Assembly: GCA_965116495.1 (NCBI GenBank)
Contig: OZ220696.1
Location: forward strand, 2,272,001-2,336,000
DNA: 64,000 nucleotides
Source: Gammaproteobacteria bacterium
GTDB lineage: Bacteria; Pseudomonadota; Gammaproteobacteria; Eutrophobiales; Eutrophobiaceae
Direction of reading: 5' to 3'
A model generated the notes under the pieces. That model was not told the DNA's origin, searched no databases, and worked only from the letters and a program-made list of their open reading frames with translations. The position numbers were made by a program, and so were the translations under genes. Every line of letters begins with the position of its first letter. The stretch's first letter is position 1. Shown piece after piece: positions 32,431 through 61,039 of the stretch.

Positions 32431-32433
32431 CGT

Positions 32434-36599: not shown

Positions 36600-36617
36600 A
36601 AACCTTGATGAAAGGGC

Positions 36618-41968: not shown

Positions 41969-41979
41969 CCTGGCCTCAA

Positions 41980-42021: not shown

Positions 42022-42222
42022 TAAACGCGCGTCTTACTGCTTGAACCGGGAAAAACAGGCATCAATTTCCGGTTTCAGTTCTATACCTGCTTTTCGAAGC
42101 AATCCAATAGAGCCGAATAAACACCGTCGTCATAATCCATTGATGCCGTCCTTCAATCAATCCCCTTCCGATTTTATGGATGTCCCGGATTTATTCCCGG
42201 GTTGAAATCCTTCCGCTTTTGC

Positions 42223-42252
42223 ATGTACGATATACGTACATTATCCTGTACA
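42223..42252. promoter_or_regulatory. Putative YefM operator
   Basis: ATGTACG-ATATA-CGTACAT palindrome and TGTACA just upstream of yefM. YefM operators are TGTACA-core palindromes. Confidence 0.65.
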
Positions 42253-42271
42253 ACATAAACTGGAGGTTGTT

Positions 42272-42523
42272 ATGGACGCAATCAGTTACACTGCTGCTCG
42301 GGCAAACCTGGCAAAGACGATGGAAAAAGTATGTGATGACCATACGCCCGTCATCATTACGCGCAAGCGGGAAGCGGCTGTGGTAATGCTATCCCTGGAC
42401 GATTACCAGGCCCTGGAAGAAACCGCTTACCTGCAGCGCTCCCCAGCCAATGCCAGGCGTCTGTTGGACTCCATTGCCGAACTTGAAGCCGGAAAAGGCA
42501 CGGAACGGGAACTTATTGAATGA
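42272..42523 (+). CDS. yefM: YefM/Phd antitoxin
   Basis: MDAISYTAARANLAKTM, LEETAYL.RSPANARRL. Confidence 0.95.
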   Translation: MDAISYTAARANLAKTMEKVCDDHTPVIITRKREAAVVMLSLDDYQALEETAYLQRSPANARRLLDSIAELEAGKGTERELIE

Positions 42524-42777
42524 AAACCACGTTTTCTTCCACGGCGTGGGAGAATTATCTTTACTGGCAGAAGACAGACAAAGCAACCCTGAAACGAATC
42601 AATACATTAATCAAGGCAATTCAGCGCGATCCCTTCTCAGGAATTGGAAAACCGGAATCACTGAGACATAACCTGACAGGCTATTGGTCCAGACGGATCA
42701 ATGACGAGCATAGAATCGTTTACAAGGTTGCCGATAATCACTTGTATATCGCTCAACTCAAGTACCATTACGAGTAG
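42520..42777 (+). CDS. yoeB: YoeB/Txe toxin
   Basis: YLYWQKTD, GIGKPE.L, GYWSRRINDEHRIVY; ATGA overlap with yefM. Confidence 0.95.
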   Translation: MKTTFSSTAWENYLYWQKTDKATLKRINTLIKAIQRDPFSGIGKPESLRHNLTGYWSRRINDEHRIVYKVADNHLYIAQLKYHYE

Positions 42778-43928
42778 TGGGAATAAATCCAGGACACCTG
42801 CCCACACCCATAAATCCCTCCGAGGAACTCCTTGGCCGGTTCTATTCGCTCGCCACCGGGGTAGGATTTGCCTTGCGCGAGTTCACCGACTACCTGGATG
42901 CGCGACAGCGGTTCCGTTACCAGGAATTTTTTGAAGTTGCGGCTGAGGCTTGCGTCTTTCCACTTGACTTCAATGAGCTGGTGAGGCTGTTTTTCCCGGG
43001 TGATGAGAAAATCGATCTCAAGGCCGTCCTTAGTCCTGAGGAACTGTAAACCAAGGTCGGCGCCGTCCACGTCCTGCGCCCGTTGCACTTCTTTCAGCAG
43101 GGCACAGGCCACCAGGTTTTCCAGCCTGGTTCCCTCGTCTCCCTGCACCATGCCGTTGTCATAAAAATAGTATTTCGGTTCTTTCAACAGTGCCCGCGCG
43201 ATGTTTTTATGGTAAGGGACCAGCTTGAAGATCACGTACAGGTCTTCCAGCAGCTTCAGCCAATGGCGGATGGTATTGGGACTTTTTTGCAGGTCGCGGG
43301 CAAGCGAGTTGGCGGAAACGGGACTGCCGACCCGGGTCCGCAGTAATTCAATGAGGGTCTCTATGGATTGAATATCCCTGACTGCCGTCAGTGTCAGGAG
43401 TTCTTCTTTCAGAATGAGGTCCACGTGTGAACGTTTCCAACGATTGTAGTAAGCTCGAGTGCCCTTGAGGAAAGGTTCCGGAAAGCCGCCTACCGTCATC
43501 AGGCGGGTAAAAATCTCATCCCTGCCCAAATCGGTTTGCGCCAATGCCTCCTTAAGGTCCACCGGGTGCAGGTGAAACTGAAAATGTCTGCCGGCCAGCG
43601 AATCGCCCGTCTTGCGGAAAGCCTCAAGCCTGGCGCTGCCGGTGACCAGCAGCGCCGGAGGCATGCCCTCAACGTCGTAGATACCCTTCAACCAGGCCTT
43701 CCATTGATCCATCTTGTGCAGCTCATCAAAAATCACCAGCGCCTTTTGCCGGTCCCAGCTTTTTTCCATAAGCAGCAGACGGTGTTCTGCCAGGTCATAA
43801 TTGATGTATTGGTAATCCGGGCACAACATCCTGGACAAGGTGGTTTTGCCGCACTGGCGCGGCCCGGTGAGCAGCAGGATTTTCCTGCCCAGTTCTTCTG
43901 ACAGTGCGGGGGTAAGATATCTTTCCAC
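42768..43928 (-). CDS. AAA ATPase with DUF4143-type C-terminal PD-(D/E)XK-like domain
   Basis: GPRQCGKTT, FDELHK, VTGS, GGFPE, KYYFYDNG, EIDFL...IEVK. Confidence 0.88.
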   Translation of the reverse strand: MERYLTPALSEELGRKILLLTGPRQCGKTTLSRMLCPDYQYINYDLAEHRLLLMEKSWDRQKALVIFDELHKMDQWKAWLKGIYDVEGMPPALLVTGSARLEAFRKTGDSLAGRHFQFHLHPVDLKEALAQTDLGRDEIFTRLMTVGGFPEPFLKGTRAYYNRWKRSHVDLILKEELLTLTAVRDIQSIETLIELLRTRVGSPVSANSLARDLQKSPNTIRHWLKLLEDLYVIFKLVPYHKNIARALLKEPKYYFYDNGMVQGDEGTRLENLVACALLKEVQRAQDVDGADLGLQFLRTKDGLEIDFLITREKQPHQLIEVKWKDASLSRNFKKFLVTEPLSRIQVVGELAQGKSYPGGERIEPAKEFLGGIYGCGQVSWIYSHYS

Positions 43929-45575: not shown

Positions 45576-45827
45576 ATGAAAAGTGGCGACGACATGCTAA
45601 GACAACTCGTTGATAAATCCGCTGCTGACGCGGCGTTCAGGCAACAACTTCTCTCTGATCCCAAGACTGCCATAACCGCTGAGTTGGGCATTACCATGCC
45701 CGAATCGATGAATGTTGTGGTACATGAAAGCGACATGCAAACTGTTCACGTTGCTTTGCCGCCGGATCCGAATATCACCGAGGAACAACTCGAAGCCGTT
45801 TCGGCCGGCCTTTGCTGCTGCTGGTAA
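45576..45827 (+). CDS. srpE: NHLP/proteusin RiPP precursor, core LCCCW
   Basis: AGGAGG RBS; NHLP leader (D.AFRQQLLSDPK, VHE, LPP, EEQLEAVSAG); 5-residue core LCCCW-stop. Confidence 0.92.
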   Translation: MKSGDDMLRQLVDKSAADAAFRQQLLSDPKTAITAELGITMPESMNVVVHESDMQTVHVALPPDPNITEEQLEAVSAGLCCCW

Positions 45828-46162: not shown

Positions 46163-47281
46163 TTACTGGTAAACCGCCCCGGAAAGCACCATAAATACAT
46201 AGGCCTTGGCTTTTCGAAGCTGATTGTCTGATATGACCAGCTTCACATGGTGAATGCCCCGCAGCATAATATAACGCCCGGACTTCGCAAAAAGCGGTGT
46301 CGGTTTTGAGACCCAGCCGGCTAGCGCCTTGATCTTGTCGGAAAACACAATATCCTCATGGTCCAGGGCTTCCAGGAAGGGTGCCCAATCGGTCAAACCG
46401 TCAAGCCAATAGCGCGAATCCTTGGTATATCTCTGCTTTACAATGAGTGTGAGACCAAGCGTCGGACCAATTCCATCCTCCTGCACGTCAATATTCAATC
46501 CAATCCTGACAATGTTCACGCGGTCTGTGAAGCGTGAAATCACTGAATCGACGGCTGTGATCTGACCGGGCCAACCCGTATCTTCCAGGTATCGGGCTAC
46601 CTCCTGCTTCGATTTGAAGCCCATGACAGCGAGGCGAATTGCCCGAGAGCGGGACGGAAATACTCCAAACGAGTCCATGCGCGTATCTTCCGGCTGCGCA
46701 AGGTAAGCTTGTTGGAGGTACTTCCGTTCTGCGTCGTTAATCTCCCAGCCTACGCAGGAAGCGAGTGCGTCACTCACCATAACGACGTCATCTTCCTGAC
46801 CGTTGGCGCCGGTAATCGGGCGTTCGCCGGGCCGCAAGAACATTCCGGGGAAAGAACCTTGTCCCTCCCGCGCAGATCCTATGTCATATTCCAGCATAAG
46901 TTTCTGACCGACAATTTCACGCAGGGGTGAGTTTTCGGTTTCCATTTGCTCGCAGGCCCGCACAATTGCGCCGGCGGTCTCATCTGTGTTATCGGTCCGT
47001 GCGCACTCCCGGAAAAACTCTGCCGACCTGGTTCCACCGGCCAGGGAAGCGCCGAAATCCGCCTCCGGTTTGGGCGAATGCAACGGCAGTTCGAAGCCGA
47101 ATGGCAAAGCGGCCATTGTAATCGGAAGTTTTCCGGCGCAGTCGAGTATGCATTCCCATTCAGATGCCCCGATAAGAACCGGCGAAATCCTGTCCCGAAA
47201 GTGCCCAAGCAAATCACCCATGGTGCCGCCTTCCTCGGCGAGACGTTCCTGGGTAAGAATCACAGCTTCGTCAATATTCAT
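46163..47281 (-). CDS. RiPP-cluster protein of unknown function, possibly ABBA prenyltransferase-like
   Basis: 372 aa, 4-bp overlap with the upstream gene; FGFELPL, LMLEYD, HHVKLV, AKAY motifs. Fold call is tentative. Confidence 0.6.
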   Translation of the reverse strand: MNIDEAVILTQERLAEEGGTMGDLLGHFRDRISPVLIGASEWECILDCAGKLPITMAALPFGFELPLHSPKPEADFGASLAGGTRSAEFFRECARTDNTDETAGAIVRACEQMETENSPLREIVGQKLMLEYDIGSAREGQGSFPGMFLRPGERPITGANGQEDDVVMVSDALASCVGWEINDAERKYLQQAYLAQPEDTRMDSFGVFPSRSRAIRLAVMGFKSKQEVARYLEDTGWPGQITAVDSVISRFTDRVNIVRIGLNIDVQEDGIGPTLGLTLIVKQRYTKDSRYWLDGLTDWAPFLEALDHEDIVFSDKIKALAGWVSKPTPLFAKSGRYIMLRGIHHVKLVISDNQLRKAKAYVFMVLSGAVYQ

Positions 47282-48588
47282 ATGGTCTTCTCCAGCAGGA
47301 ATTCAACCAGACGCTCCAGGGCTTCGATGCAAAATGCGGAAGTCACCGATTCGGAACCATGCCCAATCTGCCCTACCAGACCCCACTTCAACTCCTGATC
47401 GCCAAACGCGAGAAACTCCGGCCAACTGCCGTCCTCACGTTGCGAGTTCAGGAACCTTTTCACCTGGTGTTCTGCGTCGATGCTTTGCAGGCTTCCAATA
47501 TTGTAGAGAGCAGACACTGCCTGGGCAGTCTGGAGGATATTGCCGAATTCCCCCTTCCCGTCGCGCAGGCCGAGGATACCATCCGCAAGCGCCGGGCGTA
47601 ACCGGTCAAGAGCGGACGGCACGCGCAGCAGGGCGCGGGTGATTGCATAGTAGATTGAGATCGAATCAGGATACCACTTGGACGTTCCATCCAGGCTGTC
47701 TTCAATGATCAAACCTTCCAGCCATTGCCGGGCTTCCCTGGTTTCCGGACGCTCACCGAGATAGGCAATGACATTCGCATTAACCACAGGATCGGCTTCG
47801 ATACGAAAAGTAGATACTACATCAGGTTCATCATCCGCGAGTATCCAGGTCTGGAAAAGACCTTTTTCGTCGCGATTTGCCAGAATTCCCGGGACATTCC
47901 TTTCCAGCAATATCCAGGGGTGATTCCCGATGACAAGTGAGCAGACTGTGGAACTATCGAGGTCCTGCGGCAGATGTCGGTAGTAGCGCCATAATCCGGG
48001 ATATTCCATGGTATCGACAAGATACGCCCTGGTGGTGGCACAAATGGCTTTAGCCTTCGGTTCATCACAGCCTTCCAGGGCAAGTACACAGAATGCCGAA
48101 ATAAACGGGGGTCTTTCGAAATGCCTTGGGATGTTCGGGTCGGCTATATTGAAACGGATGCAGTGCCAGGCCCCGTTTTCATCGATCCCGGATTCCAGGA
48201 AATCGAGACCGCGACGGATGCTTTCCCTGCATGCATCGGCAAGCGTCCCGGGCGTGGCGTTGGATAACAAGGCGCCTGCGCCACCCGGTTCGGGAGGGCG
48301 GACAGGCGGCGCCGGATCATAAAGTGTCTTGCGCAGGAACTCGAGTGATTGTGAGCCGGTTCTCGCCTCCTGCCGTTCAGCCGCGCTGAATTTGCTGCGC
48401 GGCGGAAGCGCCAGATGCGCAACGGAAACGGTATCTTCGTGCACGCGAATCTCATGATCTTCGTCCAAGGTCACACCAAGTTCCTCTTCGATGGTTTCTT
48501 TGGGTTTCTCAAGCAAACGATTGCGAAGATCATCGTCTTCGACGGCTCTTGATATGAGGTAATTAATTGTGTGAACAGGATACTTCAC
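47278..48588 (-). CDS. NHLP-leader-like domain fused to a class II terpene cyclase/prenyltransferase-like helical domain
   Basis: N-terminus RAVEDDDLRNRLLEKPK..IEEELG..VHED..HLALPP; then GLWRYY..LPQDLDSST, DPVVNANV and a QW motif QREDGSW. Confidence 0.75.
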   Translation of the reverse strand: MKYPVHTINYLISRAVEDDDLRNRLLEKPKETIEEELGVTLDEDHEIRVHEDTVSVAHLALPPRSKFSAAERQEARTGSQSLEFLRKTLYDPAPPVRPPEPGGAGALLSNATPGTLADACRESIRRGLDFLESGIDENGAWHCIRFNIADPNIPRHFERPPFISAFCVLALEGCDEPKAKAICATTRAYLVDTMEYPGLWRYYRHLPQDLDSSTVCSLVIGNHPWILLERNVPGILANRDEKGLFQTWILADDEPDVVSTFRIEADPVVNANVIAYLGERPETREARQWLEGLIIEDSLDGTSKWYPDSISIYYAITRALLRVPSALDRLRPALADGILGLRDGKGEFGNILQTAQAVSALYNIGSLQSIDAEHQVKRFLNSQREDGSWPEFLAFGDQELKWGLVGQIGHGSESVTSAFCIEALERLVEFLLEKTI

Positions 48589-48595: not shown

Positions 48596-51544
48596 TCAGG
48601 CGACCTGCCTCTTTACCAGTTCTTTGAATACTCCTTCCTCCTCCATGAGTTCGTTGAAGGATCCGCTCTGCACAACTTTTCCGGCCTGCATCACAAAGAT
48701 TCGATCAGCCTGTTGCAATGAGGACAGGCGGTGGGCGATAACGATCCGGGTCGAGGTGAGGAGCGCCAGGTTCTGCATGACCTCGGCCTGGTTTTCGTTA
48801 TCGAGCCAGTTGGTTGCCTCGTCAAGCAGCATGACCCGCGGGCTGGCGAGCAGTGAACGGGCGATGGTGACGCGCTGGCTCTCGCCACCCGAAAGGACGG
48901 CGCCGCTGGACCCGACCATGGTCATCATGCCCATGGGCATCGCCTTGATTTCCTTTTCTATTCCGGCGGCACGGGCCGTCTGCCACACTTCCTCTGTTGT
49001 CGTCGGCTCGTGGTGCGCGACGATATTGTCCCAAACATCCTGGGGATGGAGACGCACTGACTGCGGCACCGAGCCAACTTTCCGGCGCACTTGCTTCAGG
49101 TTCAGGTGCCTCAGGTCACGCCCGTCATAATAAACCGCGCCGGCAGTTGGCGAATCGATGCCGAGGGCAAGCCGGAACAAGGTACTCTTGCCGGCGCCGG
49201 ACTCGCCGGCGATCGCGATAAATTCGCCGGGTCGCGCGCGAATAGTGACATCGTCGAGGATCAACGGGCCGTCGGGATCGTAGCGAAAGGAAATACGGTC
49301 GAACAGGACTTCGCCGCCCAGACGTTCAACCGGCTCACCTTCAACGGCTGCTTCAGGAACTGTGGCGAGCAGCGGGCGCATCTGGTCGAACGCCGGCAGC
49401 ATGGCGGCAATAGCGCCGAAGGACTCGCCAAGGCGGGCGATTGCGGACTGGAAAGCGATGAAGACAACGTAAACGACGAGAAAATCGCCGACAGGAACGT
49501 TGCGGTCACCCACCGCGGCCACTGCGAAAAGCAATGCCCCGCCGGCGAGAAAGGGGAGCGCGGCAGCGAATGCCCGCGAGTGCCCCTCAAGTGCGCCCAG
49601 TTCGATTTCTGCGCGTTTCTGTTCGCGATAATCCCGGGCCCAGATGGCGAATGCCGACCCTTCCGCATTTTCCACACGCAGCTTGGCGATGCCTCCCACG
49701 ATCTGGAACAGCCGGCCGGATACACGACGTACAGCGCTGATCATCCGCCCGTACGGTGCAACCTGGCGCAACCCAATGGCGACGGTGACCAGCAGGGAAA
49801 CCAGGCTGAAGCCAAGGGCGATGACCCCGAGGGTGGCATCGTAGAAGAAGATGACGCCAAAAACCGGCAACAGGAAAATGATCGACAGCAGGCTGTCGGC
49901 GATGACTCCCTGCAAGCCGTCGCGAAGATTCTGGAATGTCATCCCCGACATGGCCAGGTCGCCGGCCGGATAGCGGTGCAGAATGCTTGACGGTAGGCGC
50001 ATGAGGCGGTCCCAGAAGGCAGCTTCGACCCTTGATGCCGAACGCCCCTCGAGCCGCATCAGCGCCGATCCCTGCAGCAGGTGCAGCAGTGCGCCGAGCA
50101 GGCCGAACGCCGCCAACGTCACGGCCACGGCATACAGCGCGCCGGCGCTTCCCCCCCCGCCCCCGATATGATTCGCAACGAAACCAAGCGCAACTGCCGG
50201 CAGCAGTTTGACCAGGCCGCCCGGAAGCCCGGCCAGCACCAGCCGCAGTAGGTCCGCGGCCGTTCCTTGCATGGCGATCCCCAGCAGGTCTGCCGGTTTT
50301 ACGGGTGCCGACGGCAATGGCCGGTAGAACACCCAGGCTTCGTCCTTCAGCGCCTCAGCACGAGCCGCCGTAACCCGAACGCTGCGCTTGGTGACCGGAT
50401 CAACTTCCCGGTAGCGTCCGAACATTCCCGGTATCAGTGCGACCGGCTGGTCGTCCCCGGCGCGGAATGCCAGTAGTGCGTTGCTGTCACTGCGCCACCA
50501 GTTGCCCGCGGCCTCGAAGCGCACGCGCCGGGCGCGTACCCCTGACGAATCAAGCACGTCTACGAGGCGGATCGGTGAATCCGAAGGTCGGGAGCGCGCT
50601 GGAATCCTGAAATCGATGCCTTCATGACGGCCGACGATTTGCAAGGCATCCGCCAGCACCGTGTCCTCGACGCTGGCCTCCCGGTCGATCGGCAGGTCAT
50701 AGATATTGAAAAGCCGCTGCCGGGCAGCTTGTTCGGCCGTGCGGCGGCTGGTTGTCCGCTCGCGCTCGAGATTCGCATCATCGACCACGGCCAGTCGGCG
50801 ATTAAGGCGTTCCAGGTTAAAGGCAAGCGCGTGAAAGGAGGCGAGCGCCGGCAGCAGCATGCCTTGCTGGGCCAGTGTTTCGGTTGATTTGCCGGAAACT
50901 GTCGCCTCGTCGAACAAGGTGAGCCAGTTCGTCCGCGTCAGTGGTATCAACGCTTCGCGCGAGCCGCCTGTCTCGGCAAGTTGCGCCGGGTCGACCATAT
51001 CCATGAACAGGCTTGCTCCGAGGGACGGTTCGGACACCCATACCACGCCGCGTCGCACGGACAGCGTACAAGGGCCCAGTGACTGCGTCAGACCGGGTTC
51101 GGCCAGCGCAGTCGGTCGCGGCAGGTGGCTGACGAAACGCGAAAGTGTGTCAGTCATGTCGGTGAGCCAGGTATCGGCCTGTTGCGCCAGTTCTGCCGGA
51201 TGAACCTCGGACAGCAGGGATGCCGGCAGCCGTTTCAGAAGGGTGCCCGGCAACCCCTTGGCGATCAGGCTGAGCGTGGTGACTTTGCCATTGTCGTCCT
51301 GTTCGTCCGCTACGACACCCGGCAACAACCTGCCCGATTCGCAACGCAGCAGGTGCTGCGGCGCCGCCTGCTCTACCCCGTCCCTGAATTCGACCAGGAA
51401 CAGATCGACGGCACCCTGGTCAATGAACCAGACATTGTCCGCATCGTCGAGCGTTACCGGCAGGTTGCCGGCGCAAGGCACGGATGTGCCGGAGTGGGCG
51501 GCAAGCCGGCTTATTGATGCGTGTTCCGGCATGGCGTCCTGCAT
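48596..51544 (-). CDS. NHLP bacteriocin export ABC transporter, permease/ATPase subunit
   Basis: Long N-terminal region, TMD (AAFWDRLMRLP), GESGAGKST, LSGGE, LDEAT. Confidence 0.92.
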   Translation of the reverse strand: MQDAMPEHASISRLAAHSGTSVPCAGNLPVTLDDADNVWFIDQGAVDLFLVEFRDGVEQAAPQHLLRCESGRLLPGVVADEQDDNGKVTTLSLIAKGLPGTLLKRLPASLLSEVHPAELAQQADTWLTDMTDTLSRFVSHLPRPTALAEPGLTQSLGPCTLSVRRGVVWVSEPSLGASLFMDMVDPAQLAETGGSREALIPLTRTNWLTLFDEATVSGKSTETLAQQGMLLPALASFHALAFNLERLNRRLAVVDDANLERERTTSRRTAEQAARQRLFNIYDLPIDREASVEDTVLADALQIVGRHEGIDFRIPARSRPSDSPIRLVDVLDSSGVRARRVRFEAAGNWWRSDSNALLAFRAGDDQPVALIPGMFGRYREVDPVTKRSVRVTAARAEALKDEAWVFYRPLPSAPVKPADLLGIAMQGTAADLLRLVLAGLPGGLVKLLPAVALGFVANHIGGGGGSAGALYAVAVTLAAFGLLGALLHLLQGSALMRLEGRSASRVEAAFWDRLMRLPSSILHRYPAGDLAMSGMTFQNLRDGLQGVIADSLLSIIFLLPVFGVIFFYDATLGVIALGFSLVSLLVTVAIGLRQVAPYGRMISAVRRVSGRLFQIVGGIAKLRVENAEGSAFAIWARDYREQKRAEIELGALEGHSRAFAAALPFLAGGALLFAVAAVGDRNVPVGDFLVVYVVFIAFQSAIARLGESFGAIAAMLPAFDQMRPLLATVPEAAVEGEPVERLGGEVLFDRISFRYDPDGPLILDDVTIRARPGEFIAIAGESGAGKSTLFRLALGIDSPTAGAVYYDGRDLRHLNLKQVRRKVGSVPQSVRLHPQDVWDNIVAHHEPTTTEEVWQTARAAGIEKEIKAMPMGMMTMVGSSGAVLSGGESQRVTIARSLLASPRVMLLDEATNWLDNENQAEVMQNLALLTSTRIVIAHRLSSLQQADRIFVMQAGKVVQSGSFNELMEEEGVFKELVKRQVA

Positions 51545-53754
51545 CAGCCTGATTTGACCAGTTTGTAATACATGCCGGCCTGGTCCGCAATCAACTCGTC
51601 GTGGGTGCCGCGCTGCACTTCGGCGCCCTTGTCGAGTACTATGATCTCATCACAATCCCGCACCGTGCTCAGCCGGTGCGCCACGATCAGGCAGGTGACA
51701 CCGCGACGCCGTAAGGCATCATCCACATATTCCTCCGTGGCGGCATCGAGTGCGCTGGTCGCCTCGTCCAGAATGAGCACTGTCGGATTGCCCACCAGCC
51801 CGCGGGCGATTTCCAGCCGTTGTCGCTGGCCGCCGCTGAAATTCGCCCCGCCTTCCTCGACGAGGGTCGCGTATCCATGCGGCCTGATCAGGATTTCCTC
51901 ATGGATGCAGGCATCCCGTGTTGCGGCAATGATGACTTCATCCGGAACGGCCGGGTTCCACAAGGTGATATTGTCTCGCACGGACGCGGAAAACAGCACG
52001 GCCTCCTGGTCCACCATGGAAATGGACCGCCGCAGTACTTCCTCGGGGATCTCATCCCGCGGATGGCCATCTAGCAGTATTTCACCAGACCATGGCTGAC
52101 TGATTCCCGAAACGAGACGCGCCAGGGTCGACTTGCCGGAACCGCTTGGACCGACCACGGCAACCCGCTGCCCCGGTTTGATCACGAGGTTGAAGTCCTT
52201 GATCAAGGGCGGTCGGCTCTTGTTGTAACCGAAGGTGACGTTGCGCAATTCGAGACTGCCCGCAAGCTGTAGCCGGCCGTTGAACGTGGGGATTGCCTGC
52301 GCTTCCGGACTGCGGCGGCTGAACACGGGGTCTTCAGCGGTCCTGGAGATGTCATCCAGCCGTTGCAAATCGGTTTCGAGCGCCTGGCGTTTGTCGGCGA
52401 ACTCCAGAAACCGCCCAACCGGCGCCAGAAACATCTCTGCCAGTATGTAGAACCCGACCAGCGCCCCCAGGGTCATTGCTCCGGTCATGACCAGGCTCCC
52501 CCCAAACCCCAGGATTGCCGCGGCGCGAAATGCCGCGATCAGGCCGGGAAGCGCGCTATTGACGGCGCCCAGTTCGGAGTAGCGTTGGCGCGCATGAAGT
52601 TCGCTTGCCTGCTGGCCGCTCCAGCGCGAAAAAAAACGATCGTCCGACCCTGTCATGCGCAGGTTATCCGCATGACTCAACATCTGCATACCAACGCCGA
52701 TCAGCAATCCCTGCTCGCGCCTCATTGCCTGGCTTCGAACTTCCCTGAGCGCGCTCAGGAAGCGGGCCAGCACTCCGTGCAGGAGAGCCAGCAACAGCAC
52801 GATCAGCGTTAGCAGGACATCGTAGGCCAACATCGCGACAAGCAACACTGCGCTCATGGCCATGTCTACAATGAGCACAAGAAACTGCTCCGTCAGGTTT
52901 TTCGCGATGCGATCGATGGACGAGACCCGGTCGGTGAGGTCGCCGGCCAGCCTGTGTTCAAAAAACTCCACCGGCAGCCGCAGCAGCCGCGACAGGCCCC
53001 GGTTGTAGCCGATCACCGAAACCCGGACCGCGAGCCGCTTGAGGAAACGGTGCTTGAGCAAGGTCAGGACGTATACCAGGATGCCGCCGCCAATCAAGGC
53101 GGCCACCAATCCGCCCCAGGGTCCGTGGTTTTCCAGAACGTCGTCTACGAAAACACCGAGAGTTGCGGGAACGACAAGCGCCAGCAACGTCAACATGAGG
53201 CCACAGGCAATCACCCCGGTAAGCACGCCCCACGATTCGGCGAGCAAGGCGCCCAGTTGCCTGACTAGGTTTGGCCGGTCACCGCCGGGCTTGAAATCGG
53301 GACCGCACTTGAAGCGAAGCATAATCCCGCTGTAGCCCTTGGTAAACTCTTCTGCGCTAACCCTGCGTTTCCCTGTGGCAGGGTCATTCAGGTAGAAACT
53401 TTGGCCATCGAACCCTTCGAGCACAACGAAATGGCTGAATTGCCAGAATAAAATCAGCGGAAGCTCCACCCGTTTCAGCTGATCGGCGCGCAGGCTGAGC
53501 CCTTTGCATTCAAGACCATAGTACCTGGCGGCGCGCAGGATGCTTGCCGCACTGCTGCCGTCACGGCTCACTTCACATTTATCGCGTAATTCAGTCAACG
53601 GCGCCCAGCGCCCGAAATAAGCCAGGACGATCCCGAGACAGGCGGCGCCACATTCCGACGCATGCATCTGCAACAGAACCGGTGTGTTGACCTTCTTTTT
53701 CAAAACGTCCGAAGACGCCTTATCCCTGGCTCCCTTGGGGGCGCTCGATGGCAT
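51544..53754 (-). CDS. NHLP bacteriocin export ABC transporter with C39 peptidase
   Basis: QMHASECGAACL, HFVV, NDPA, GPSGSGKST, FSGGQRQR, LDEATS. Confidence 0.95.
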   Translation of the reverse strand: MPSSAPKGARDKASSDVLKKKVNTPVLLQMHASECGAACLGIVLAYFGRWAPLTELRDKCEVSRDGSSAASILRAARYYGLECKGLSLRADQLKRVELPLILFWQFSHFVVLEGFDGQSFYLNDPATGKRRVSAEEFTKGYSGIMLRFKCGPDFKPGGDRPNLVRQLGALLAESWGVLTGVIACGLMLTLLALVVPATLGVFVDDVLENHGPWGGLVAALIGGGILVYVLTLLKHRFLKRLAVRVSVIGYNRGLSRLLRLPVEFFEHRLAGDLTDRVSSIDRIAKNLTEQFLVLIVDMAMSAVLLVAMLAYDVLLTLIVLLLALLHGVLARFLSALREVRSQAMRREQGLLIGVGMQMLSHADNLRMTGSDDRFFSRWSGQQASELHARQRYSELGAVNSALPGLIAAFRAAAILGFGGSLVMTGAMTLGALVGFYILAEMFLAPVGRFLEFADKRQALETDLQRLDDISRTAEDPVFSRRSPEAQAIPTFNGRLQLAGSLELRNVTFGYNKSRPPLIKDFNLVIKPGQRVAVVGPSGSGKSTLARLVSGISQPWSGEILLDGHPRDEIPEEVLRRSISMVDQEAVLFSASVRDNITLWNPAVPDEVIIAATRDACIHEEILIRPHGYATLVEEGGANFSGGQRQRLEIARGLVGNPTVLILDEATSALDAATEEYVDDALRRRGVTCLIVAHRLSTVRDCDEIIVLDKGAEVQRGTHDELIADQAGMYYKLVKSG

Positions 53755-53755
53755 C

Positions 53756-54307
53756 TTATAGTCGCGTCGTAAGGAACAGTTCTATCGGAGATTGCCTGCC
53801 AAGCCCGATAACCAGCCGGCATTCCCTGCTGGTGAGGGAGTCCGGCTCAAGACCTTCTTCGAGAACGATATCGACACGGTGCAGGGACTCAGGCGCCTCG
53901 GGCAGAAACGCCGACATCCCGCCGGAAATGGGTATAGCGGAAATTGCCTTGACTGCACCGTCCAGTGTGCCTGCTTTTGCATCTTTCGTGTCCAACTCAA
54001 CCATTACCGGCATCCCGGCCTCGATTGACGGCGCGGTGCTGCTCTGCATCCAGACAAGGGCCTGCACAAGCCGGCTTCCTTCAGGTGAGGTTTCACCTTG
54101 TTCAATAAGTATGCCGTTGAACTCAATACTACGGGCTATGTTGCCGAAGAGAAGCCATGCTGAGAGTATTAACAGGAAAACGGCAATTGCCGCGACAAGC
54201 AGGCGTTCATGCGGTGTGGAAATCGTCAGCAGCCGGTCGAGTTGCTCGCGTTCTTCCTTCGCCTCAGCTACCGTATCGTGAAATGATTCAAACGGATTGT
54301 TGAACAT
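53756..54307 (-). CDS. Short NHLP secretion (HlyD-like) accessory protein
   Basis: REQLDRLLTISTP, TM helix, C-terminal SPIELF; only 183 aa. Confidence 0.75.
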   Translation of the reverse strand: MFNNPFESFHDTVAEAKEEREQLDRLLTISTPHERLLVAAIAVFLLILSAWLLFGNIARSIEFNGILIEQGETSPEGSRLVQALVWMQSSTAPSIEAGMPVMVELDTKDAKAGTLDGAVKAISAIPISGGMSAFLPEAPESLHRVDIVLEEGLEPDSLTSRECRLVIGLGRQSPIELFLTTRL

Positions 54308-54591: not shown

Positions 54592-56865
54592 TCACGCAAT
54601 TACAGGGACGGGATTCAGTTCAGCCTCCCCGGTGGGGCAATCCCGCCAGCCCATCTCAACCGGTACGTCATATAGGCGTCCCGGTGCGAAGCGTTCCCAG
54701 AAGTGACGCAGGCCCGGCACGATCACGCGCGCCACGGGCATACCGATGTCAGGCCGGGTCTGGTCGAGCACCAACAATTCCATCCCCCTCACTTCGACCA
54801 ACCCACGGCACCATTCCACATCGTCTCTCAGGTCTTCCGTATCCGGAACCGAATAATCGGAACTCTGGCTCAACCTGGCATCGCCTGCAGGCGCGAGATG
54901 GGGGTGGTCGGCCAGTTTGCCGTTCTTCCACCACCACAGACACATCGGATCATCGACCCCGTACCCGCTTTGAGCATTGCCCGGGCGAGGGACCCAGGTG
55001 AGGCACTGGTTCAATTCACACACGGCCCGCAGCGCCGCAATCCGGGGGTCGGCGTGTGCGCCTGCGCCATAGATGATGTCTTCGGCCACGCCATCGTTGC
55101 TGCGGGACAGTGCAACAAAGGCAGGAATTCCAAGGTCGCCGGTAAGGTCCAGCAGCCACATTTCGCGATTGTATTGATGATAATAACCTGGGGCAGATGC
55201 CAGGTACTCGTCAGCAAAGCTATCCAGGTCCACTCCGGGCCTTTGCAGCCGGTTGTACCACCAGATTGCGACGGCATCGCGTTCGACCAGTTCAAAAAAC
55301 CCCTGCAGAACAGCTTCTTCCAGGGTGTTCCCGGCTGCACAGCCGTTGGAGTCGGACCAAAGCCCCGAGGTTCCCCGCTGCTCCGGAGTCATTCCGTAGA
55401 GGATGGCTGTCGGTAACCAGCATTGCCGGTCCCGGGTGAGCGACCATACCGGAGACCAGTCCAGTTCATGCTCCGGGTCGAAGCGCGCCGGAACGACATT
55501 ATACGGGTGGCCGCGTGCGTTGATCTCTTGCGCATGGTCCAGTTGCCGGTCGCTGAACAACTGGACGTCGTTCGGGTGGATCGCCTCTCCATCCGCCGCT
55601 CCGGAAAAATCCGCCAGGCGCCTGCGGCAACGGATTTCATCACCGTGGAAAGCGCCGGAATAGCGCTCGACCGCTTCGCACAGCGCACTGACCTCGGATT
55701 GCTCCGCGCTGCTGCCCTTACCTGCACTCTTGCTGCGCAGGCTGCGCCGCAATGAGCTCAGGTTCTTGATTCTCAAGGCAAGATTGCTGCCCGCCCAATG
55801 TACATGCAGCCAGGAGTCTGTTCCGGGAGTTGTGCGTGAAACCCAACTGACCACTCCACTCACCGGACTGACCAGGTGCCGGTACTTTTCAAGCGTCTCC
55901 GCAGGTGTAGCCGCCCGCACTCCGCCGCTGTTGCGAAACTGTTTCGGGCTCGCCTGCAATCGCACCGGCGTCGCCGGCCGATCAGTTTTATAGAGTTCCT
56001 CGTTTCCGCAGACCGGGCATTGCGGACGGCGCATGACCCGGTGATGTTCACTTTTCATGCCGACAACATCCAGTGTGATCGCATGGTCATGCAACGGCGC
56101 CGCATCCCCAAGGACAAACCACCTGGCGATCTCAATGGCAACAGTTCCGCTGACGACATCCAATGCCAGGGGTTCGGCTACGTTCGGACGAAACGCGGCC
56201 GCCTCGCCACAGTGATTTCGCACAAAGGAATGGACCTCCTGGTGGTTTCGAATACGGTAGGAAAGGCAGGCCCAACACGGACTTTTCTGCGCAGGCCGGA
56301 ACACAGGGCCAAACAGCGGTCGTAATCCTGCAGGCCGGACCAGCACCCATGGGATGCCCGATTCCAGGTGCTCCCGGTTGACGGCGGCAAACTCATCATC
56401 AAGATAGTCGGAACCTGCGTAAATGGACAGGGACGGGCGGTTTGTACCGACTGTAATACCCATGCCCTCAAGCCGTGTCGCGAGACGGCCGTCGTCACCC
56501 TGGATTACTACCTGCGCTTCCTGCAATCGCTCTTCAACCTGGCGCGGGGATGCACCCTGCGAGGACCAGAATGCCGCCCTGCCCCGTTCCATGTCATAAT
56601 CGCCGGATACGGTGTATCCCCTGGATTCCAGGAAAGTCAGGGCTTTGCGGACATCCGTCTCCGGATGCACCCCGTCTAGCGCATCAACAATACTTTCCCG
56701 GGAACGGCAACCGTCAAGCAACGGCAGGAGATCCCCATATACCTGCCCATGCAGGAGCGTGTTGAATGTTTCGGAAACCAGGAGCACCTGCCCGGCGCCG
56801 ATAGAGCGGTGCTCAAGGTGCGGCGCAAGCACCGGCCGTTCAATCTGGTGCGGATTAACAGCCAA
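54592..56865 (-). CDS. srpC: Fused E1-like/YcaO cyclodehydratase (azoline-forming)
   Basis: RRE-like N-terminus, PCWACL...CPVCG, SAGKG, EAVERY, SNGCAAGNTLEEA, ELVERDA, GRLY, C-terminal PVP. Confidence 0.95.
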   Translation of the reverse strand: MAVNPHQIERPVLAPHLEHRSIGAGQVLLVSETFNTLLHGQVYGDLLPLLDGCRSRESIVDALDGVHPETDVRKALTFLESRGYTVSGDYDMERGRAAFWSSQGASPRQVEERLQEAQVVIQGDDGRLATRLEGMGITVGTNRPSLSIYAGSDYLDDEFAAVNREHLESGIPWVLVRPAGLRPLFGPVFRPAQKSPCWACLSYRIRNHQEVHSFVRNHCGEAAAFRPNVAEPLALDVVSGTVAIEIARWFVLGDAAPLHDHAITLDVVGMKSEHHRVMRRPQCPVCGNEELYKTDRPATPVRLQASPKQFRNSGGVRAATPAETLEKYRHLVSPVSGVVSWVSRTTPGTDSWLHVHWAGSNLALRIKNLSSLRRSLRSKSAGKGSSAEQSEVSALCEAVERYSGAFHGDEIRCRRRLADFSGAADGEAIHPNDVQLFSDRQLDHAQEINARGHPYNVVPARFDPEHELDWSPVWSLTRDRQCWLPTAILYGMTPEQRGTSGLWSDSNGCAAGNTLEEAVLQGFFELVERDAVAIWWYNRLQRPGVDLDSFADEYLASAPGYYHQYNREMWLLDLTGDLGIPAFVALSRSNDGVAEDIIYGAGAHADPRIAALRAVCELNQCLTWVPRPGNAQSGYGVDDPMCLWWWKNGKLADHPHLAPAGDARLSQSSDYSVPDTEDLRDDVEWCRGLVEVRGMELLVLDQTRPDIGMPVARVIVPGLRHFWERFAPGRLYDVPVEMGWRDCPTGEAELNPVPVIA

Positions 56866-57151
56866 GACCCTGTGACATCTGTGTATAACTGGTTAGAGGA
56901 ACCCCGCACATCCGGTCCTGGTCCGACTTGTCTTCGGCCGGCAAACTTGTCAGATGTTGCAAATGGGGAACCAGGCTCGGCCAGCTGCCTTCGCCCACCC
57001 CTATGGTCGGGATGTGGGAGTCGTATATGTGGTGCAGCTCATGATCCGGGTCAGGGTGAAGGCGAGTCACGGCAGCGGCCGCCAAAGACCCTGCGGTTCC
57101 CCGGCCAATCACTGCGATGTTCTTTAACGACTTGCTGCCAGGATTTATCAA
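56855..57151 (-). pseudogene. srpI: Internally deleted flavin-dependent (Trp-type) halogenase
   Basis: IAVIGRGTAG and IPTIGVGEG N-terminal motifs; only 98 codons with no catalytic middle; stop overlaps the YcaO start. Confidence 0.82.
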
Positions 57152-57367: not shown

Positions 57368-58312
57368 ATGAGCAATTCAGCCGACAAGTGGTTATACTAT
57401 GGTGACCATCAGGACACCCCAACCTTGAACACCACTCGCGAAATACCTCTTTCCGAGCATGAACGCTCGGTAATTGAACACTACGACAAAATGACCAGGG
57501 TGTTCTATCTCCAGTGGAGTTCCGAGCATTTTCATTTCGGTGTATTCAAGCCCGGGGAACGCCCCAGGCACAACGAGACTCCGAAAGAATCGGACGGACA
57601 TGCAAGAGCACTGGAGCGCATGGTGGAAGTCATAGTTGCCCCAGCCGGGATTGAGGGACACCATCATGTGGTGGACGCCGGGTGCGGAGTGGGCGGAACT
57701 GCCTTTCACCTGGGCAGGACGCGGGACTGCAAGGTCACGGGCGTGAACCTGAGCAAGACGCAACTGGAGATTGCCAGAAGTAAGGCAGTTAATGCCGGCC
57801 TGGGTGATCGGATAGACTTTAAGTACGCGAACTGTTCCCGGAGTCTGCCGTTCGCAGATGGCTCCGTGGACGTGGTTGTCAATATCGAAAGCGCCCGTCA
57901 CTACAGTGACCGAAGAACATTTCTCCACGAGGTATACAGGATCCTGAAACCGGGAGGAAGCATTGTGGCTTCAGACTGGGTGGTGCATGACGTAATACCG
58001 GACAGCCAGCACAAACGTTACATTCAACCGTTATGCGAGGACTGGATGCTGTATAACCTGGAGTCCCAGTCCTCGTACACCCGGTTGCTGCAGGAAGCGG
58101 GTCTGGAAGTGATTGAATTTGAGGGATTCAACGGAATGGAGTTTGACAACCTGCATCTCCTCACAAACACCTACCAGTCCCTGGGACTGCTGCGAACCGG
58201 TTACATGAAGTCGCCTGTTTTCGCCAAACTGATGACTCAGCTGGAAAGATTGTGTGTTGCCTGGCGACACAGTTACCTGGGCATCAAACGCTACTGCGCC
58301 GTGAAAGGTTAG
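57368..58312 (+). CDS. Class I SAM-dependent methyltransferase (tocopherol/sterol-MT-like)
   Basis: HYD...HFHFG, VVDAGCGVGG, LPFADGSVD, RILKPGG. Confidence 0.9.
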   Translation: MSNSADKWLYYGDHQDTPTLNTTREIPLSEHERSVIEHYDKMTRVFYLQWSSEHFHFGVFKPGERPRHNETPKESDGHARALERMVEVIVAPAGIEGHHHVVDAGCGVGGTAFHLGRTRDCKVTGVNLSKTQLEIARSKAVNAGLGDRIDFKYANCSRSLPFADGSVDVVVNIESARHYSDRRTFLHEVYRILKPGGSIVASDWVVHDVIPDSQHKRYIQPLCEDWMLYNLESQSSYTRLLQEAGLEVIEFEGFNGMEFDNLHLLTNTYQSLGLLRTGYMKSPVFAKLMTQLERLCVAWRHSYLGIKRYCAVKG

Positions 58313-58339: not shown

Positions 58340-60757
58340 TCAGGCATTGAAGAGTGCGTCGATGTCGGTAGCGGCGCGTGTTGCCGTTACTTTAATCGCG
58401 GCGCTCAGTGCATCGAAGTCGTCTGTTCCGCAGCTTCTGGCAATGACTGTCCTGGCCATCGGCCAGGTGGCATTATCCACGTTGTTATCTTCTCCCAGCA
58501 AGCGCAGGATGCCGCGCAGGTTGCGCCACATTCTTGCCGCCTCAGCCAACCGTTGCGCGCAATCGTCAGGTATCACCTCACCCTCGCCGGCGCTCTGGAA
58601 TACGGAAACCGTACCTGCGGCAATAACCTCCGGCGCCGTTGCAGCATGGGTCACAGTCAGATATGCGGCAGCGCGTTCTACCTCCCGGAGACCGCCGCGC
58701 ATATTCTCGAATGATTGCAGTCCGGCCTCCGGCGTGCCCTCCCCTGCCTGACGCAATTCATTCAGCAACGCATCACGAGCGGCGCCATTGGCCAGGATTT
58801 CAAGGCGCGTATCCTCAAACCGTTTTCCCAGCCCGGCATCCCCTGATGTAAAAACACAGCGCGACCGTAAGAGTTCCAGCAACTCTCCTGTTGAGGAGTT
58901 GCTGTAATGGTGTTCCGAAAAGTCAGCGAGAGAACGGACAATTGTCTCAGCCCTGCCCGGCAACATCGGCTGCAACAGCAGGTTGTCCCGTGACAGGGCG
59001 CGCAACGCGTCGAGAGAGCGCTCGCTCAATGTCCTGTAATAATCGGGTGAGCCACTGCCGTCATAAAGGAACATGATGCCAAGCCCGGCGCCCAGCGTCG
59101 CTTCTCCACTTGCAATCTCTCCCAGAACCACTGCCGCCACACCGCCTTCGAGCCGCCGCTGGGTAAAATCCTCCACCGCAGCCGAGAGAACACCGGCGAT
59201 CGAGGCCTCAGCAATGTTGGACAGCGCCGTCCCCGCTTCAACCGGTGACAGGTTGCCGCGCAATGTGTGCATGGCAACCTGCAGGACCTTGTCGTTCGAC
59301 CAGTTGCGCATGATCTCTACCGCATCTTTCGTGTCCTGCACCGGGATATCTGCAACCTGCTCCTTCATTTCTTCAGCAGTGAATTCCAACGTCCAGTACA
59401 CGCGCGTCAGACCGCGTCGAGCAATTAATTCAAACTCGGGACTCGGCCCGAATCCGTCCGGCAGGTCAAGATCGGTGAATTCCCTGTCCTGAAGGATGTC
59501 GAGCAACGCCGGGGTACGGTTTATCCATTCGGAAAGCCGTGGCGATGCTGCCATGATCGCGGAAATTGTATCGAACATATCCGGACGCGCGTCGAATGCA
59601 GGGCTGTCGTAAACGTTCCAGTCCTTGACCTCCGGATAATAACGCTGCCTCCACTTGTCGACCAACGGGTCCATCGTCTCGAACCAGCGGCGGGGGGACA
59701 TCGCCAGGCCGCCCATTTTGCCGTAGGGCCCGGGCAGTTGCGGCGATTGATCCTCACCCCAGTGCTGTAACAGCGGATAAGGCCGGCTTGCAGCGGCATG
59801 GTGGTCGGCATGGCGCTGCGCGTTGTAATAGATCCAGTTGAAAAACCTGTAGTCGCTGCTCCAGGAATGTTGCGGCTGGGGTCGCTCGAAGCGGCCGTTG
59901 GGAAGGCGGATACGCCGTAATCCGTAATGCTGGACATAGTTGATGATCTTCATTGACAGGACCGAACTGGCGCTGAACATCAGGAATGCCAGGATTCCCC
60001 AGATACCGCCGAACCAGTATCCGAGGGCATACCAGAACGTAACCATGAGGAAATAACGCCAGAACGGATTGGTGTAATGCCAGACCGGGAGGTGGCGGCG
60101 CGCCAGCCTGTCGCGCTCGAAACGCCAGGCTACGACGAGACTGTTCGCCACGTCCCGGGGGAAATATTCCCAAAAGCTCTGCCCCTTGCGCGCCGAGCCG
60201 AGATCTGCAGGCGTGGCGACCAGGGGGTGATGTATATAGACATGCTCCGTGGCGTAGTGCGGGTAGGTGACCGAAGCCAGCAGGAACTCGCCGAACCTGC
60301 GCTCCCATTCATAGCGCTTATGTACCAGCTCATGACCGATAATGAACACCATCTGGGACGCCATGCCGAGAGCAAATATCATCAGCACGGCCTCCCACAC
60401 GGCCAGGTGGCCGCCAATAAAAATCTGCCAGAGTACGAATACGAGGACCACCGGCCACAGTACGGCCCACATCCATACAGCCAGGTTGTATACGTACAAC
60501 TGGCTGTCACGGGTACCCCACGGATCCATGTTGCGTTCTTCCAGGCCTAAATGGAGATCGAGCCTGTTCTCAAGCCAGACAAACAGGAACGGCCCCATGA
60601 TCCACCAGCCCCCGTAAAGCGCTGCACAAATCACCAACGGGAAAATCAACAGGAGCAGGTAATGCGGGAGCGCATTCAGGACCGACGGCTGGACAAACTC
60701 CTGCCCGCCGACGGTTTCGGCGCTCGTGCCACCAGGGTCCGCGCTATACTCTGCCAT
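58340..60757 (-). CDS. AlkB-like membrane di-iron oxygenase fused to a degenerate GlnE adenylyltransferase domain
   Basis: His boxes HELVH, EHVYIHH..VATP.D, NYVQHYGL, QRHADHH. C-terminal half has GlnE-like ALSNIAEA, VVLG..GE....G.G..FLYD and RGGLREVE. Confidence 0.85.
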   Translation of the reverse strand: MAEYSADPGGTSAETVGGQEFVQPSVLNALPHYLLLLIFPLVICAALYGGWWIMGPFLFVWLENRLDLHLGLEERNMDPWGTRDSQLYVYNLAVWMWAVLWPVVLVFVLWQIFIGGHLAVWEAVLMIFALGMASQMVFIIGHELVHKRYEWERRFGEFLLASVTYPHYATEHVYIHHPLVATPADLGSARKGQSFWEYFPRDVANSLVVAWRFERDRLARRHLPVWHYTNPFWRYFLMVTFWYALGYWFGGIWGILAFLMFSASSVLSMKIINYVQHYGLRRIRLPNGRFERPQPQHSWSSDYRFFNWIYYNAQRHADHHAAASRPYPLLQHWGEDQSPQLPGPYGKMGGLAMSPRRWFETMDPLVDKWRQRYYPEVKDWNVYDSPAFDARPDMFDTISAIMAASPRLSEWINRTPALLDILQDREFTDLDLPDGFGPSPEFELIARRGLTRVYWTLEFTAEEMKEQVADIPVQDTKDAVEIMRNWSNDKVLQVAMHTLRGNLSPVEAGTALSNIAEASIAGVLSAAVEDFTQRRLEGGVAAVVLGEIASGEATLGAGLGIMFLYDGSGSPDYYRTLSERSLDALRALSRDNLLLQPMLPGRAETIVRSLADFSEHHYSNSSTGELLELLRSRCVFTSGDAGLGKRFEDTRLEILANGAARDALLNELRQAGEGTPEAGLQSFENMRGGLREVERAAAYLTVTHAATAPEVIAAGTVSVFQSAGEGEVIPDDCAQRLAEAARMWRNLRGILRLLGEDNNVDNATWPMARTVIARSCGTDDFDALSAAIKVTATRAATDIDALFNA

Positions 60758-60865
60758 GGCAACCTCCCGCTCTTATCAGCGTCCAAGTCTCATTCACGGT
60801 TTCATTGTCCATAACGTTGTAACTATGTCAAGCGAACTCACCAGGACAGGAAGTAATCGTCTCTT

Positions 60866-61039
60866 CGTCATTCCGGGCTTGTCCTGGAATCCTGTGGAAT
60901 ACTGCGTCGCCCACGGGGCGACCCGTTGTATTGACTGGATTCCCGCGTACGCGGGAATGACGAAAGAGACGCGGGAATGACGAAAGAGACGCGGGAATGA
61001 CGAAAGGGACGCGGAAGTGACAAATGGGGAGCGGGAATG
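60866..61039. repeat. GTCATTCC..GGAATCC REP-like doublet with tandem 20-bp amplification of the right arm
   Basis: CGTCATTCCGGGCTTGTCCTGGAATCC ... TGGATTCCCGCGTACGCGGGAATGACG, then GCGGGAATGACGAAAGAGAC units at 60951, 60971, 60991, 61011 and 61031 (partial). Confidence 0.85.

Follow-up and report, generated by a model that had tools for sequence, protein, structure and literature searches.

An AlkB-type oxygenase fused to a probably inactive GlnE half recurs in srp thiazoline-peptide clusters and may oxidise a predicted prenyl chain

The window analysed here is a 64,000-nucleotide stretch of a Gammaproteobacteria genome (GenBank assembly GCA_965116495.1, contig OZ220696.1, positions 2,272,001 to 2,336,000), and plain coordinates below count from its first letter. 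At 58340..60757, on the minus strand, a single open reading frame (ORF) with an ATG start encodes an 805-amino-acid protein that joins an AlkB-like membrane oxygenase to a degenerate half of the adenylyltransferase GlnE. A ribosome-binding-like GGGAGG lies ahead of the start codon at 60763-60768. Pfam places FA_desaturase at residues 120-341 (E 6e-25), GlnE at 459-648 (2e-11) and GlnD_UR_UTase at 687-796 (1e-4), while the best NCBIfam GlnE model, PRK14108, aligns residues 390-797 with its positions 574-976, the C-terminal adenylyltransferase (AT) half. Among solved structures, the sequence matches FtAlkB 8F6T (E 3e-55) and the E. coli GlnE AT domain 3K7D (E 1e-6). An AlphaFold2 (AF2) model built from 118 homologues (pLDDT 87.9, pTM 0.84) superposes on AlkB 8F6T over 355 residues (Z 38.5, rmsd 2.7, model 22-388) and, from about residue 380 to 805, on the GlnE halves 1V4A (Z 33.6, rmsd 3.1, 379 residues) and 3K7D (Z 30.3, rmsd 3.3, 352 residues). 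An earlier sequence-only reading had described one continuous frame with AlkB histidine boxes followed by a GlnE-like part, and had proposed a domain search to check it. The single frame, the Pfam matches and the GlnE-half fold of the C-terminal part (Z 30-34) all agree with that description, both for the AlkB-type di-iron domain and for its partner.

The AlkB/GlnE fusion is real and not an assembly artefact. A homologue search scored 7997 candidates, of which 877 proteins reached E <=0.001. The best 120 of these, query included, align over 95-100% of the query's length with 55-100% identity; besides the desaturase match, 115 have a precomputed Pfam match to GlnE or GlnD-UR. The family alignment (A1) holds 118 of the best 120, two shorter ones being left out, and underlies every count out of 118. 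Phylogenetically, the N-terminal halves of the fusions form one clade (support 98, FastTree), as do the C-terminal halves (SH-aLRT 100, quick tree). Contigs from two studies bridge the domain junction without a single difference: one of 1171 nt from run X1, possibly the source sample, also spans codon 560, and one of 196 nt from run X5, belonging to another study, covers 59458-59653. The fusion is thus neither unique to this assembly nor unsupported by reads, a combination that the sequence-only reading had named among its refuting conditions.

Several smaller observations surround the gene. A promoter-like site at 60804-60831 is within chance (one found, 2.2 expected), and a 20-bp tandem repeat of 4.6 copies lies at 60949-61039, between an RND transporter and the fusion gene. 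RNA run X19 yielded only two short contigs, with 3 and 16 differences, which represent a relative's sequence and give no expression evidence for the fusion gene. Frameshifted fusion copies occur at loci L007 (N-terminal half), L016 and L075 (C-terminal half), and protein P0252 is a chimeric C39-ABC/AlkB; these may be assembly errors or decay. The viral contigs searched contained no relative.

The AlkB-type membrane di-iron domain occupies residues 25-375 (59633..60685, minus strand), as indicated by the 8F6T match, the fold and the tree. The four histidine boxes that the earlier reading had located are all found within residues 142-320 on the same strand: HELVH (142-146, with H142 and H146; 60320..60334), HVYIHH in EHVYIHH 171-177 (H172, H176, H177; 60227..60244), NYVQHYG (273-279, with H277; 59921..59941) and HADHH in QRHADHH 314-320 (H316, H319, H320; 59798..59812). 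In FtAlkB, nine histidines bind the two irons (ligand list in the available text of PMC10113152). All nine are present here and are kept in 117-118 of 118 homologues (each of the five in the first two boxes in 118; H316, H319 and H320 in 118, 117 and 118) and in 37 of 37 de-duplicated locus copies. An iron-adjacent glutamate (E271/E281) stands directly before the HYG histidine in AlkB (PMC10113152, PMC10110569); the fusion has Gln276 where FtAlkB has Glu271. Gln276 was considered as a family-specific switch and dropped as not diagnostic. In a survey of 150 representatives of the wider search, of which 22 with and 117 without a GlnE-like half were scored, Glu occupies this position in 90/117 without that half and in 5/22 with it, and Gln occurs in 27/117 without it, some of these being fusion fragments.

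The sister group of the N-terminal half is the Rhodobacteraceae-type AlkB (support 91), and the nearest unfused example is an alkane 1-monooxygenase of Jannaschia rubra (P0144, WP_281826498.1). Rubredoxin (PF00301) is absent from the closed host genome (G000, 99.5% complete). Among 26 other fusion-bearing handles, three give a clear rubredoxin match (one handle being a duplicate) and a fourth gives a weak match with a stop, while both ordinary-AlkB controls were positive. The GlnE-fold partner offers no CxxC motif in any of the 118 homologues. Since alphaproteobacterial AlkB hosts reportedly often lack AlkG as well (PMC10654063, available text), independence from rubredoxin was probably inherited. 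The electron donor is probably a host carrier other than rubredoxin, most plausibly a [2Fe-2S] ferredoxin; the host genome contains 26 Fer2 matches. Another gene for an AlkB/XylM-like membrane di-iron protein, very divergent (368 aa, VQHYG box), lies about 32 kb beyond the right end of the window (C1:2367892-2368995, minus strand), with a small Fer2 ferredoxin (C1:2365793-2366005) about 2 kb from it, and several relatives in the genus have similar genes at about 40 kb from the fusion.

The C-terminal partner, at about residues 379-804 (58346..59623, minus strand), is assigned to the GlnE adenylyltransferase-half fold by profiles and structure alignment. Its profile matches the AT half better than the adenylyl-removing (AR) half in 13 of 13 non-redundant two-domain GlnE proteins, most highly in two alphaproteobacterial ones. 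A quick tree groups it with two alphaproteobacterial AT halves (SH-aLRT 99), the only two sampled. The fusion has a single origin, which probably lay in the Alphaproteobacteria. Origin by the merging of adjacent alkB and glnE genes was rejected, as seven stretches of 14-18 kb around Rhodobacteraceae-type alkB contain no neighbouring glnE; an 861-aa open frame in genome G121 was likewise rejected as a fusion, being a high-GC read-through.

This half is catalytically degenerate. The metal-binding motif of such enzymes, defined as G-X11-D-x-D in PMC12409994 (available text), runs here from G546 to G558-L-G560 (59078..59122, minus strand) and reads GEIASGEATLGAGLG. The sequence-only reading had taken the loss of both aspartates as the mark of a pseudo-enzyme and had suggested comparing homologues. 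The double loss is true of this protein and the fusion itself is conserved, but the lost DxD is not a family trait: 74/118 homologues keep two acids at 558/560 (56 ExD, 14 DxD, 4 ExE), position 560 is acidic in 111/118, and position 558 shows at least 12 different residues. The second loss is private to the strain, codon 560 being GGC here and GAC or GAT (Asp) in 9/9 close orthologues. Pseudo-enzyme status holds on other grounds. The lysine of GKLG (column 547) is replaced by Asp or Glu in 102/118 and by Ser in 3, and is never Lys or Arg; DxRLRP occurs in 0/118 homologues versus 31/32 canonical GlnE halves, all 32 of which begin the motif with G[KRS]xG; and the lysine before GG..D.E is mostly Met across the family. 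The deepest-branching fusions are also degenerate. In addition, loci L064 and L081 have independently lost about 130-145 aa of the C-lobe in frame, joining the core to the last helix, with clusters otherwise intact. Because the GKLG lysine and DxRLRP are gone in 118/118 and two lineages have deleted the C-lobe, the GlnE-like half is probably catalytically dead across the family.

Selection acts elsewhere in the domain. A family-specific insert of 27 aa at about residues 427-453 (59399..59479, minus strand), with an acidic first half, is absent from the canonical GlnE rows compared, and its region is the most conserved part of the fusion protein. The share of columns conserved at 95% or more is 53% in residues 427-458 (17/32), 30% in the AlkB part, 24-29% in the helices flanking that region and only 8-9% in the nucleotidyltransferase core and C-lobe. 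Ratios of non-synonymous to synonymous substitution (dN/dS) across 10 orthologues are 0.16 for AlkB, 0.12 for residues 376-530, 0.23 for the nucleotidyltransferase core and 0.22 for the C-lobe. Conservation, dN/dS and the two C-lobe deletions together suggest that the pseudo-enzyme is kept for its front helices and insert, and that the inactive GlnE domain is likely a docking module.

The fusion gene heads a block of genes for a ribosomally made, post-translationally modified peptide (RiPP). A SAM methyltransferase, a variable cluster member, lies at 57368..58312 on the plus strand. On the minus strand are a truncated flavin halogenase (56855..57151), which retains the first 96 of the 425 aa of an SrpI-like brominase; an SrpC-like YcaO cyclodehydratase of 757 aa (54592..56865; PF02624 E 2e-93, TIGR03604); a short HlyD-like secretion protein (53756..54307; partial match to TIGR03794); an NHLP ABC exporter with a C39 peptidase (51544..53754; TIGR03796, above cut-off); a second NHLP ABC exporter subunit (48596..51544; TIGR03797 E 2e-201, below cut-off); an NHLP-leader domain fused to a class II terpene-cyclase-like domain with a DLDS motif (47278..48588; TIGR03793; drimenol synthase 9MHS E 4e-7); and a 372-aa protein without a Pfam match, whose AF2 model and Foldseek matches predict an ABBA prenyltransferase fold (46163..47281). 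The block ends with an NHLP (proteusin) precursor of 83 aa on the plus strand (45576..45827), with ITEEQL in its leader and LCCCW in its core.

Such a gene set belongs to the srp (sponge-derived RiPP proteusin) clusters, in which SrpE is the precursor, SrpC the YcaO and SrpI the brominase; these assignments, and the sponge link, come from PMC10858898, PMC11832590 and bioRxiv 2023.06.09.544420. According to the available text of these sources, the YcaO makes thiazolines from core cysteines, the brominase brominates the terminal Trp and takes the thiazoline form as substrate (PMC10858898), a cluster with YcaO and two transporters is described (PMC11832590), and srp clusters occur widely among sponge-symbiont phyla, where they are highly transcribed, with only the cyclodehydratase and the brominase characterised. 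The bioRxiv source counts 66 halogenase-linked versus 116 YcaO-linked precursors, and the brominase is therefore a variable srp gene. No other SrpI-like brominase was found in the host genome at E 1e-8. The gene is whole in the near relatives L001, L002 and L004 and carries a different internal deletion in L003 (copy at 9434-9742), so that, judged from these gene remnants, bromination has been lost repeatedly and recently among close relatives. The available parts of the srp literature leave the AlkB/GlnE fusion, the ABBA-fold protein and the NHLP-cyclase without an assigned function. A full-text literature search found no description of the fusion or of a prenyl or terpene step in srp, though the founding 2021 srp paper and the bioRxiv supplements may already annotate the gene; a term search of four supplements of PMC10858898 gave no srp gene annotation.

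Across genomes, the fusion is, judged by gene neighbourhoods, a near-constant member of srp thiazoline-peptide clusters that moves between bacterial phyla. The 21 genome loci compared are titled Gammaproteobacteria, Nitrospirales, Binatia, Terriglobia, Paracoccaceae/Rhodobacter, Gemmatimonadetes and others, and in 15 of them, from several phyla, a YcaO lies within 7 kb of the fusion. Among the loci without one at that distance, L015 has a YcaO about 11 kb off, L014 has part of one at another contig end, and L020 is a short contig. Metagenome loci show the same association (26/30); the remaining four lie on contigs no longer than 4.3 kb, of which two carry the NHLP-cyclase. Within the genus, 23 genomes give the fusion in 14, YcaO in 14 and the 372-aa prenyltransferase-fold gene in the same 14 as YcaO; all three occur in 13, eight have no full-length copy of any, and one (G021, 77% complete) has the fusion alone, near a contig end. 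The fusion was found in 0/38 genomes from other genera of the family or class, and when 61 genomes of one alphaproteobacterial family were searched without selection, one further fusion came to light, which lies in an srp cluster. In many loci the fusion abuts YcaO within about 50-240 nt. Pairwise identities of the fusion co-vary with those of YcaO (rho 0.82, 29 loci) and of the 372-aa protein (0.66, 27 loci). An aside of the sequence-only reading, that the protein could be a tailoring oxidase of the neighbouring RiPP cluster, is the interpretation with the most support.

Some features of the surroundings are recorded for their own sake. A low-GC stretch at 36330-43928, with HipA/HipB-like, Phd/YefM-Txe-like and DEAD-helicase-like ORFs identified by sequence inspection, lies between ahcY/metF-like genes and metK; the srp cluster begins right after metK, which also flanks the srp cluster in L065, L066 and L091. 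Farther off, at 31597-33630 on the minus strand, a Rieske ring-hydroxylating oxygenase followed by an alpha/beta-hydrolase-like ORF suggests aromatic or steroid catabolism. The NHLP-cyclase stands mostly alongside Trp-ending cores where both are visible, an impression without a formal count. The 372-aa family has two to four copies in several genomes, often with two precursors (G005, G006, G020, G064, G066). Other recurrent neighbours of the fusion are a Rieske ring-hydroxylase in 4 loci (for example L077:17199-18377) and a LolA-like protein in 3 (L021:12122-13006).

The 372-aa protein directs attention to a prenyl chain. Its AF2 model (pLDDT 89.9) finds only ABBA prenyltransferases among the Foldseek matches listed (EpzP, IptA, DMATS, CloQ, PagF), at a best E of 5e-6 and TM 0.4-0.55. 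Variable neighbours include methyltransferases, a cyclopropane synthase, MMPL/sterol-sensing transporters and an oxygenase of the MpaB/Lcp family, in which MpaB cleaves a farnesyl chain. The cores that accompany the fusion include Trp-less RCCC, LCCC, LCCCGI and MCTCI; Trp is for this reason not the common target, and Trp-directed oxidation was rejected as the family function. AlkB itself is a tunnel enzyme for alkyl chains, with its site at the end of a narrow hydrophobic tunnel (PMC10110569, PMC10113152), and AlkBs are described in the available text of PMC12171333 as hydroxylating isoprenyl acetate terminally. The ABBA fold, the cyclase, the Trp-less cores, the alkyl tunnel and the isoprenyl hydroxylation together favour oxidation of a prenyl chain. 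The preferred reading, at a probability of roughly 0.45, is that the fusion, as a near-constant srp member, hydroxylates a predicted prenyl chain on the peptide, with its inactive GlnE domain likely serving for docking.

A pathway built on prenyl-chain oxidation could run as follows. As in published srp systems, YcaO would turn core cysteines to thiazolines and the brominase, where present, would brominate the terminal Trp. The ABBA-type protein, as its fold predicts, would then add a prenyl chain to the peptide, and the class II cyclase, C-methyltransferases, cyclopropane synthase and MpaB-like oxygenase may modify that chain. From the membrane, the chain would enter the AlkB tunnel, where a terminal or allylic methyl would be oxidised with O2, the electrons presumably coming from the non-rubredoxin host carrier. 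The front helices of the pseudo-GlnE domain and the 27-aa insert may hold the leader-bearing precursor, a partner enzyme or the electron carrier beside the iron site. Finally, family assignments suggest that leader removal and export of the product fall to the C39 ABC exporter. A more specific version, in which the membrane non-haem di-iron monooxygenase is a rubredoxin-free RiPP tailoring enzyme whose pseudo-AMPylase and acidic insert capture the leader-bearing precursor, is tentative and carries clearly lower odds.

Several observations weigh against prenyl-chain oxidation within the cluster. The prenyltransferase call comes from a predicted fold with modest scores (TM 0.4-0.55, 9-16% identity), and sequence searches of PDB and Pfam gave no match for the 372-aa protein. 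With Gln in the place of the iron-adjacent Glu, the chemistry may depart from that of AlkB hydroxylation. Genome G065 (locus L019) has about 1.07 Mb between fusion and cluster, and G064 has its nearest prenyltransferase-like genes about 40 kb away from the fusion. Two Terriglobia genomes, G061 and G062 (loci L010 and L011), carry an intact orphan fusion; neither a YcaO nor a prenyltransferase-like gene was found there, and the precursor profile matched only weakly. These orphans are still under purifying selection (dN/dS 0.25-0.33). Conversely, G011 has YcaO, precursor and prenyltransferase-fold gene but no fusion. Kinship partly accounts for the co-variation of fusion and YcaO, and the six most distant fusions (36-46% identity) are without known genomic context. 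The neighbourhoods of the orphans (L010:8188-12664, L011:8185-12892) continue with NHL and YncE beta-propeller genes, an HpcH aldolase and a PAP2 phosphatase, and hold no srp genes.

The orphans bear on the possibility that the fusion oxidises a free lipid or terpenoid, host- or self-derived, beside the pathway and is merely co-inherited with it, the peptide staying untouched. Copies under selection persist in G061, G062 and G065, the ancestor was an ordinary Rhodobacteraceae-type AlkB, and the neighbours include MMPL/sterol-sensing transporters, cyclopropane synthase, methyltransferases and terpene cyclase. Yet the very tight linkage and co-variation with YcaO hold across phyla even though the gene order is rearranged, the NHLP leader-like domain of the cyclase ties the terpene chemistry to the peptide machinery, and dN/dS of the AlkB part is higher in the orphan pair (0.33) than in the cluster copies (0.09-0.16). 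Oxidation of a free lipid is on balance unlikely.

Slightly less probable again is a tailoring oxidase that acts on the peptide itself, by thiazoline-to-thiazole oxidation, desaturation or C-terminal oxidative decarboxylation. Among core features, tandem Cys is the most constant, the fusion often adjoins YcaO, no SagB-type dehydrogenase recurs among the cluster neighbours (none was found in G000, G064 or G066), and Gln replaces the AlkB Glu, though Gln at that position is not diagnostic. Within the membrane di-iron superfamily, UndB decarboxylates, which counts for such a role. Members of this superfamily can also desaturate, according to the available text of PMC10110569. On the other side, the narrow hydrophobic tunnel suits alkyl chains, the published SrpI substrate is the thiazoline form, and a flavin amine-oxidase-family protein found in 9 loci (for example L070:497-2011) is an alternative candidate for these steps.

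It is improbable that the C-terminal half instead gates the oxygenase or helps it, whether as a diverged domain that binds nucleotide or metal or as a transferase of new chemistry. For such a role speak the invariant G546, the acidic residue at 560 in most homologues and the two acids in 74/118, the conserved G688, G689 and E694 of GG..D.E, and a dN/dS of the nucleotidyltransferase core still at about 0.23; SelO, an apparent pseudo-enzyme with a new activity (PMC12409994, available text), provides a precedent. An active site is harder to reconcile with at least 12 residues at 558, the change of Lys547 to Asp or Glu, the loss of DxRLRP from a family whose canonical counterparts nearly all have it, the retention of the gene by the host strain without both acids, and the two lineages that deleted the lobe bearing GG..D.E.

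The sequence-only reading had also supposed that the GlnE relic might tie lipid or alkane oxidation to nitrogen status by sensing glutamine, PII or glutamine synthetase. The domain does descend from a GlnE AT half and retains the helices preceding the AT core, but the idea fares badly and is very improbable. The host keeps a normal two-domain glnE elsewhere (C1:3827088-3829709), 5/5 other fusion hosts tested keep GlnE, whole or as two halves, and no nitrogen-assimilation or alkane-degradation gene recurs among the neighbours common to at least 3 fusion loci. Furthermore, rubredoxin is absent from the closed genome, the conserved surface is an insert missing from GlnE, and the distribution of the fusion tracks the RiPP cluster. 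As for GlnE in these hosts, it is split into two single-half proteins of about 555 and 775 aa with intact motifs in G067 (L035/L044) and G069 (L039/L043); in the host family (L051, L056, C1:3827088-3829709) its AT half reads GR(M/L)AG with MIFGSDLD or MTFGSDLD and forms a long branch apart from other gammaproteobacterial AT halves. Weakest of all, an assembly or gene-calling artefact joining neighbouring genes has practically no probability and is ruled out by the coverage of the homologues, the single clade of each half and the junction-bridging contigs.

On the more specific version, in which the pseudo-AMPylase captures the precursor for the monooxygenase, the true srp product would be an oxidised, prenyl- or terpene-decorated thiazoline peptide, whereas work to date has dealt with the bare brominated tri-thiazoline. 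With an AlkB-type oxygenase and a predicted prenyltransferase as part of the conserved srp core, the product mass and polarity to look for would change, and the genes form a small, orderable set for srp reconstitution. For enzymology, the fusion presents an AlkB that lacks rubredoxin, has Gln in place of the iron-adjacent Glu and is joined to a third type of fusion partner. It also appears to exemplify a signalling enzyme turned structural module, in which catalytic decay is accompanied by a shift of selection to a new insert.

Compared with known systems, the window cluster is of the srp kind: it has the NHLP precursor, the LCCCW core that matches SrpE (PMC10858898), the ITEEQL leader motif, YcaO and two transporters, and it shares with srp the spread over many phyla and a number of genes without an assigned function. 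As a difference, the window copy retains only the 96-aa brominase stub. Relative to GlnE, the whole half-domain fold is shared (E. coli AT half 3K7D, AR half 1V4A; Z 30-34), and G546, E552, RxR at 631-633 and GG..D.E are kept. In contrast to two-half (AR and AT) GlnE, the fusion has one half only, closest to AT, which is membrane-anchored through AlkB and carries the new insert; it has the fold of a GlnE half yet is no GlnE. Relative to AlkB, the fold (8F6T Z 38.5, 8SBB Z 36.3; SCD1 only Z 5.7), the nine His ligands and the HYG box are shared, and five of the six FtAlkB arginines that dock AlkG are kept (R148, R153, R220, R289, R292), leaving a basic docking surface with Tyr174 in place of Arg169. 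The AlkB features that the fusion lacks are the iron-adjacent Glu, which is Gln in 116/118 homologues, and the rubredoxin partner, whose place in FtAlkB-AlkG is taken here by a 425-aa GlnE-fold domain. The available part of review PMC8918992 names only rubredoxin and ferredoxin/reductase as AlkB fusion partners.

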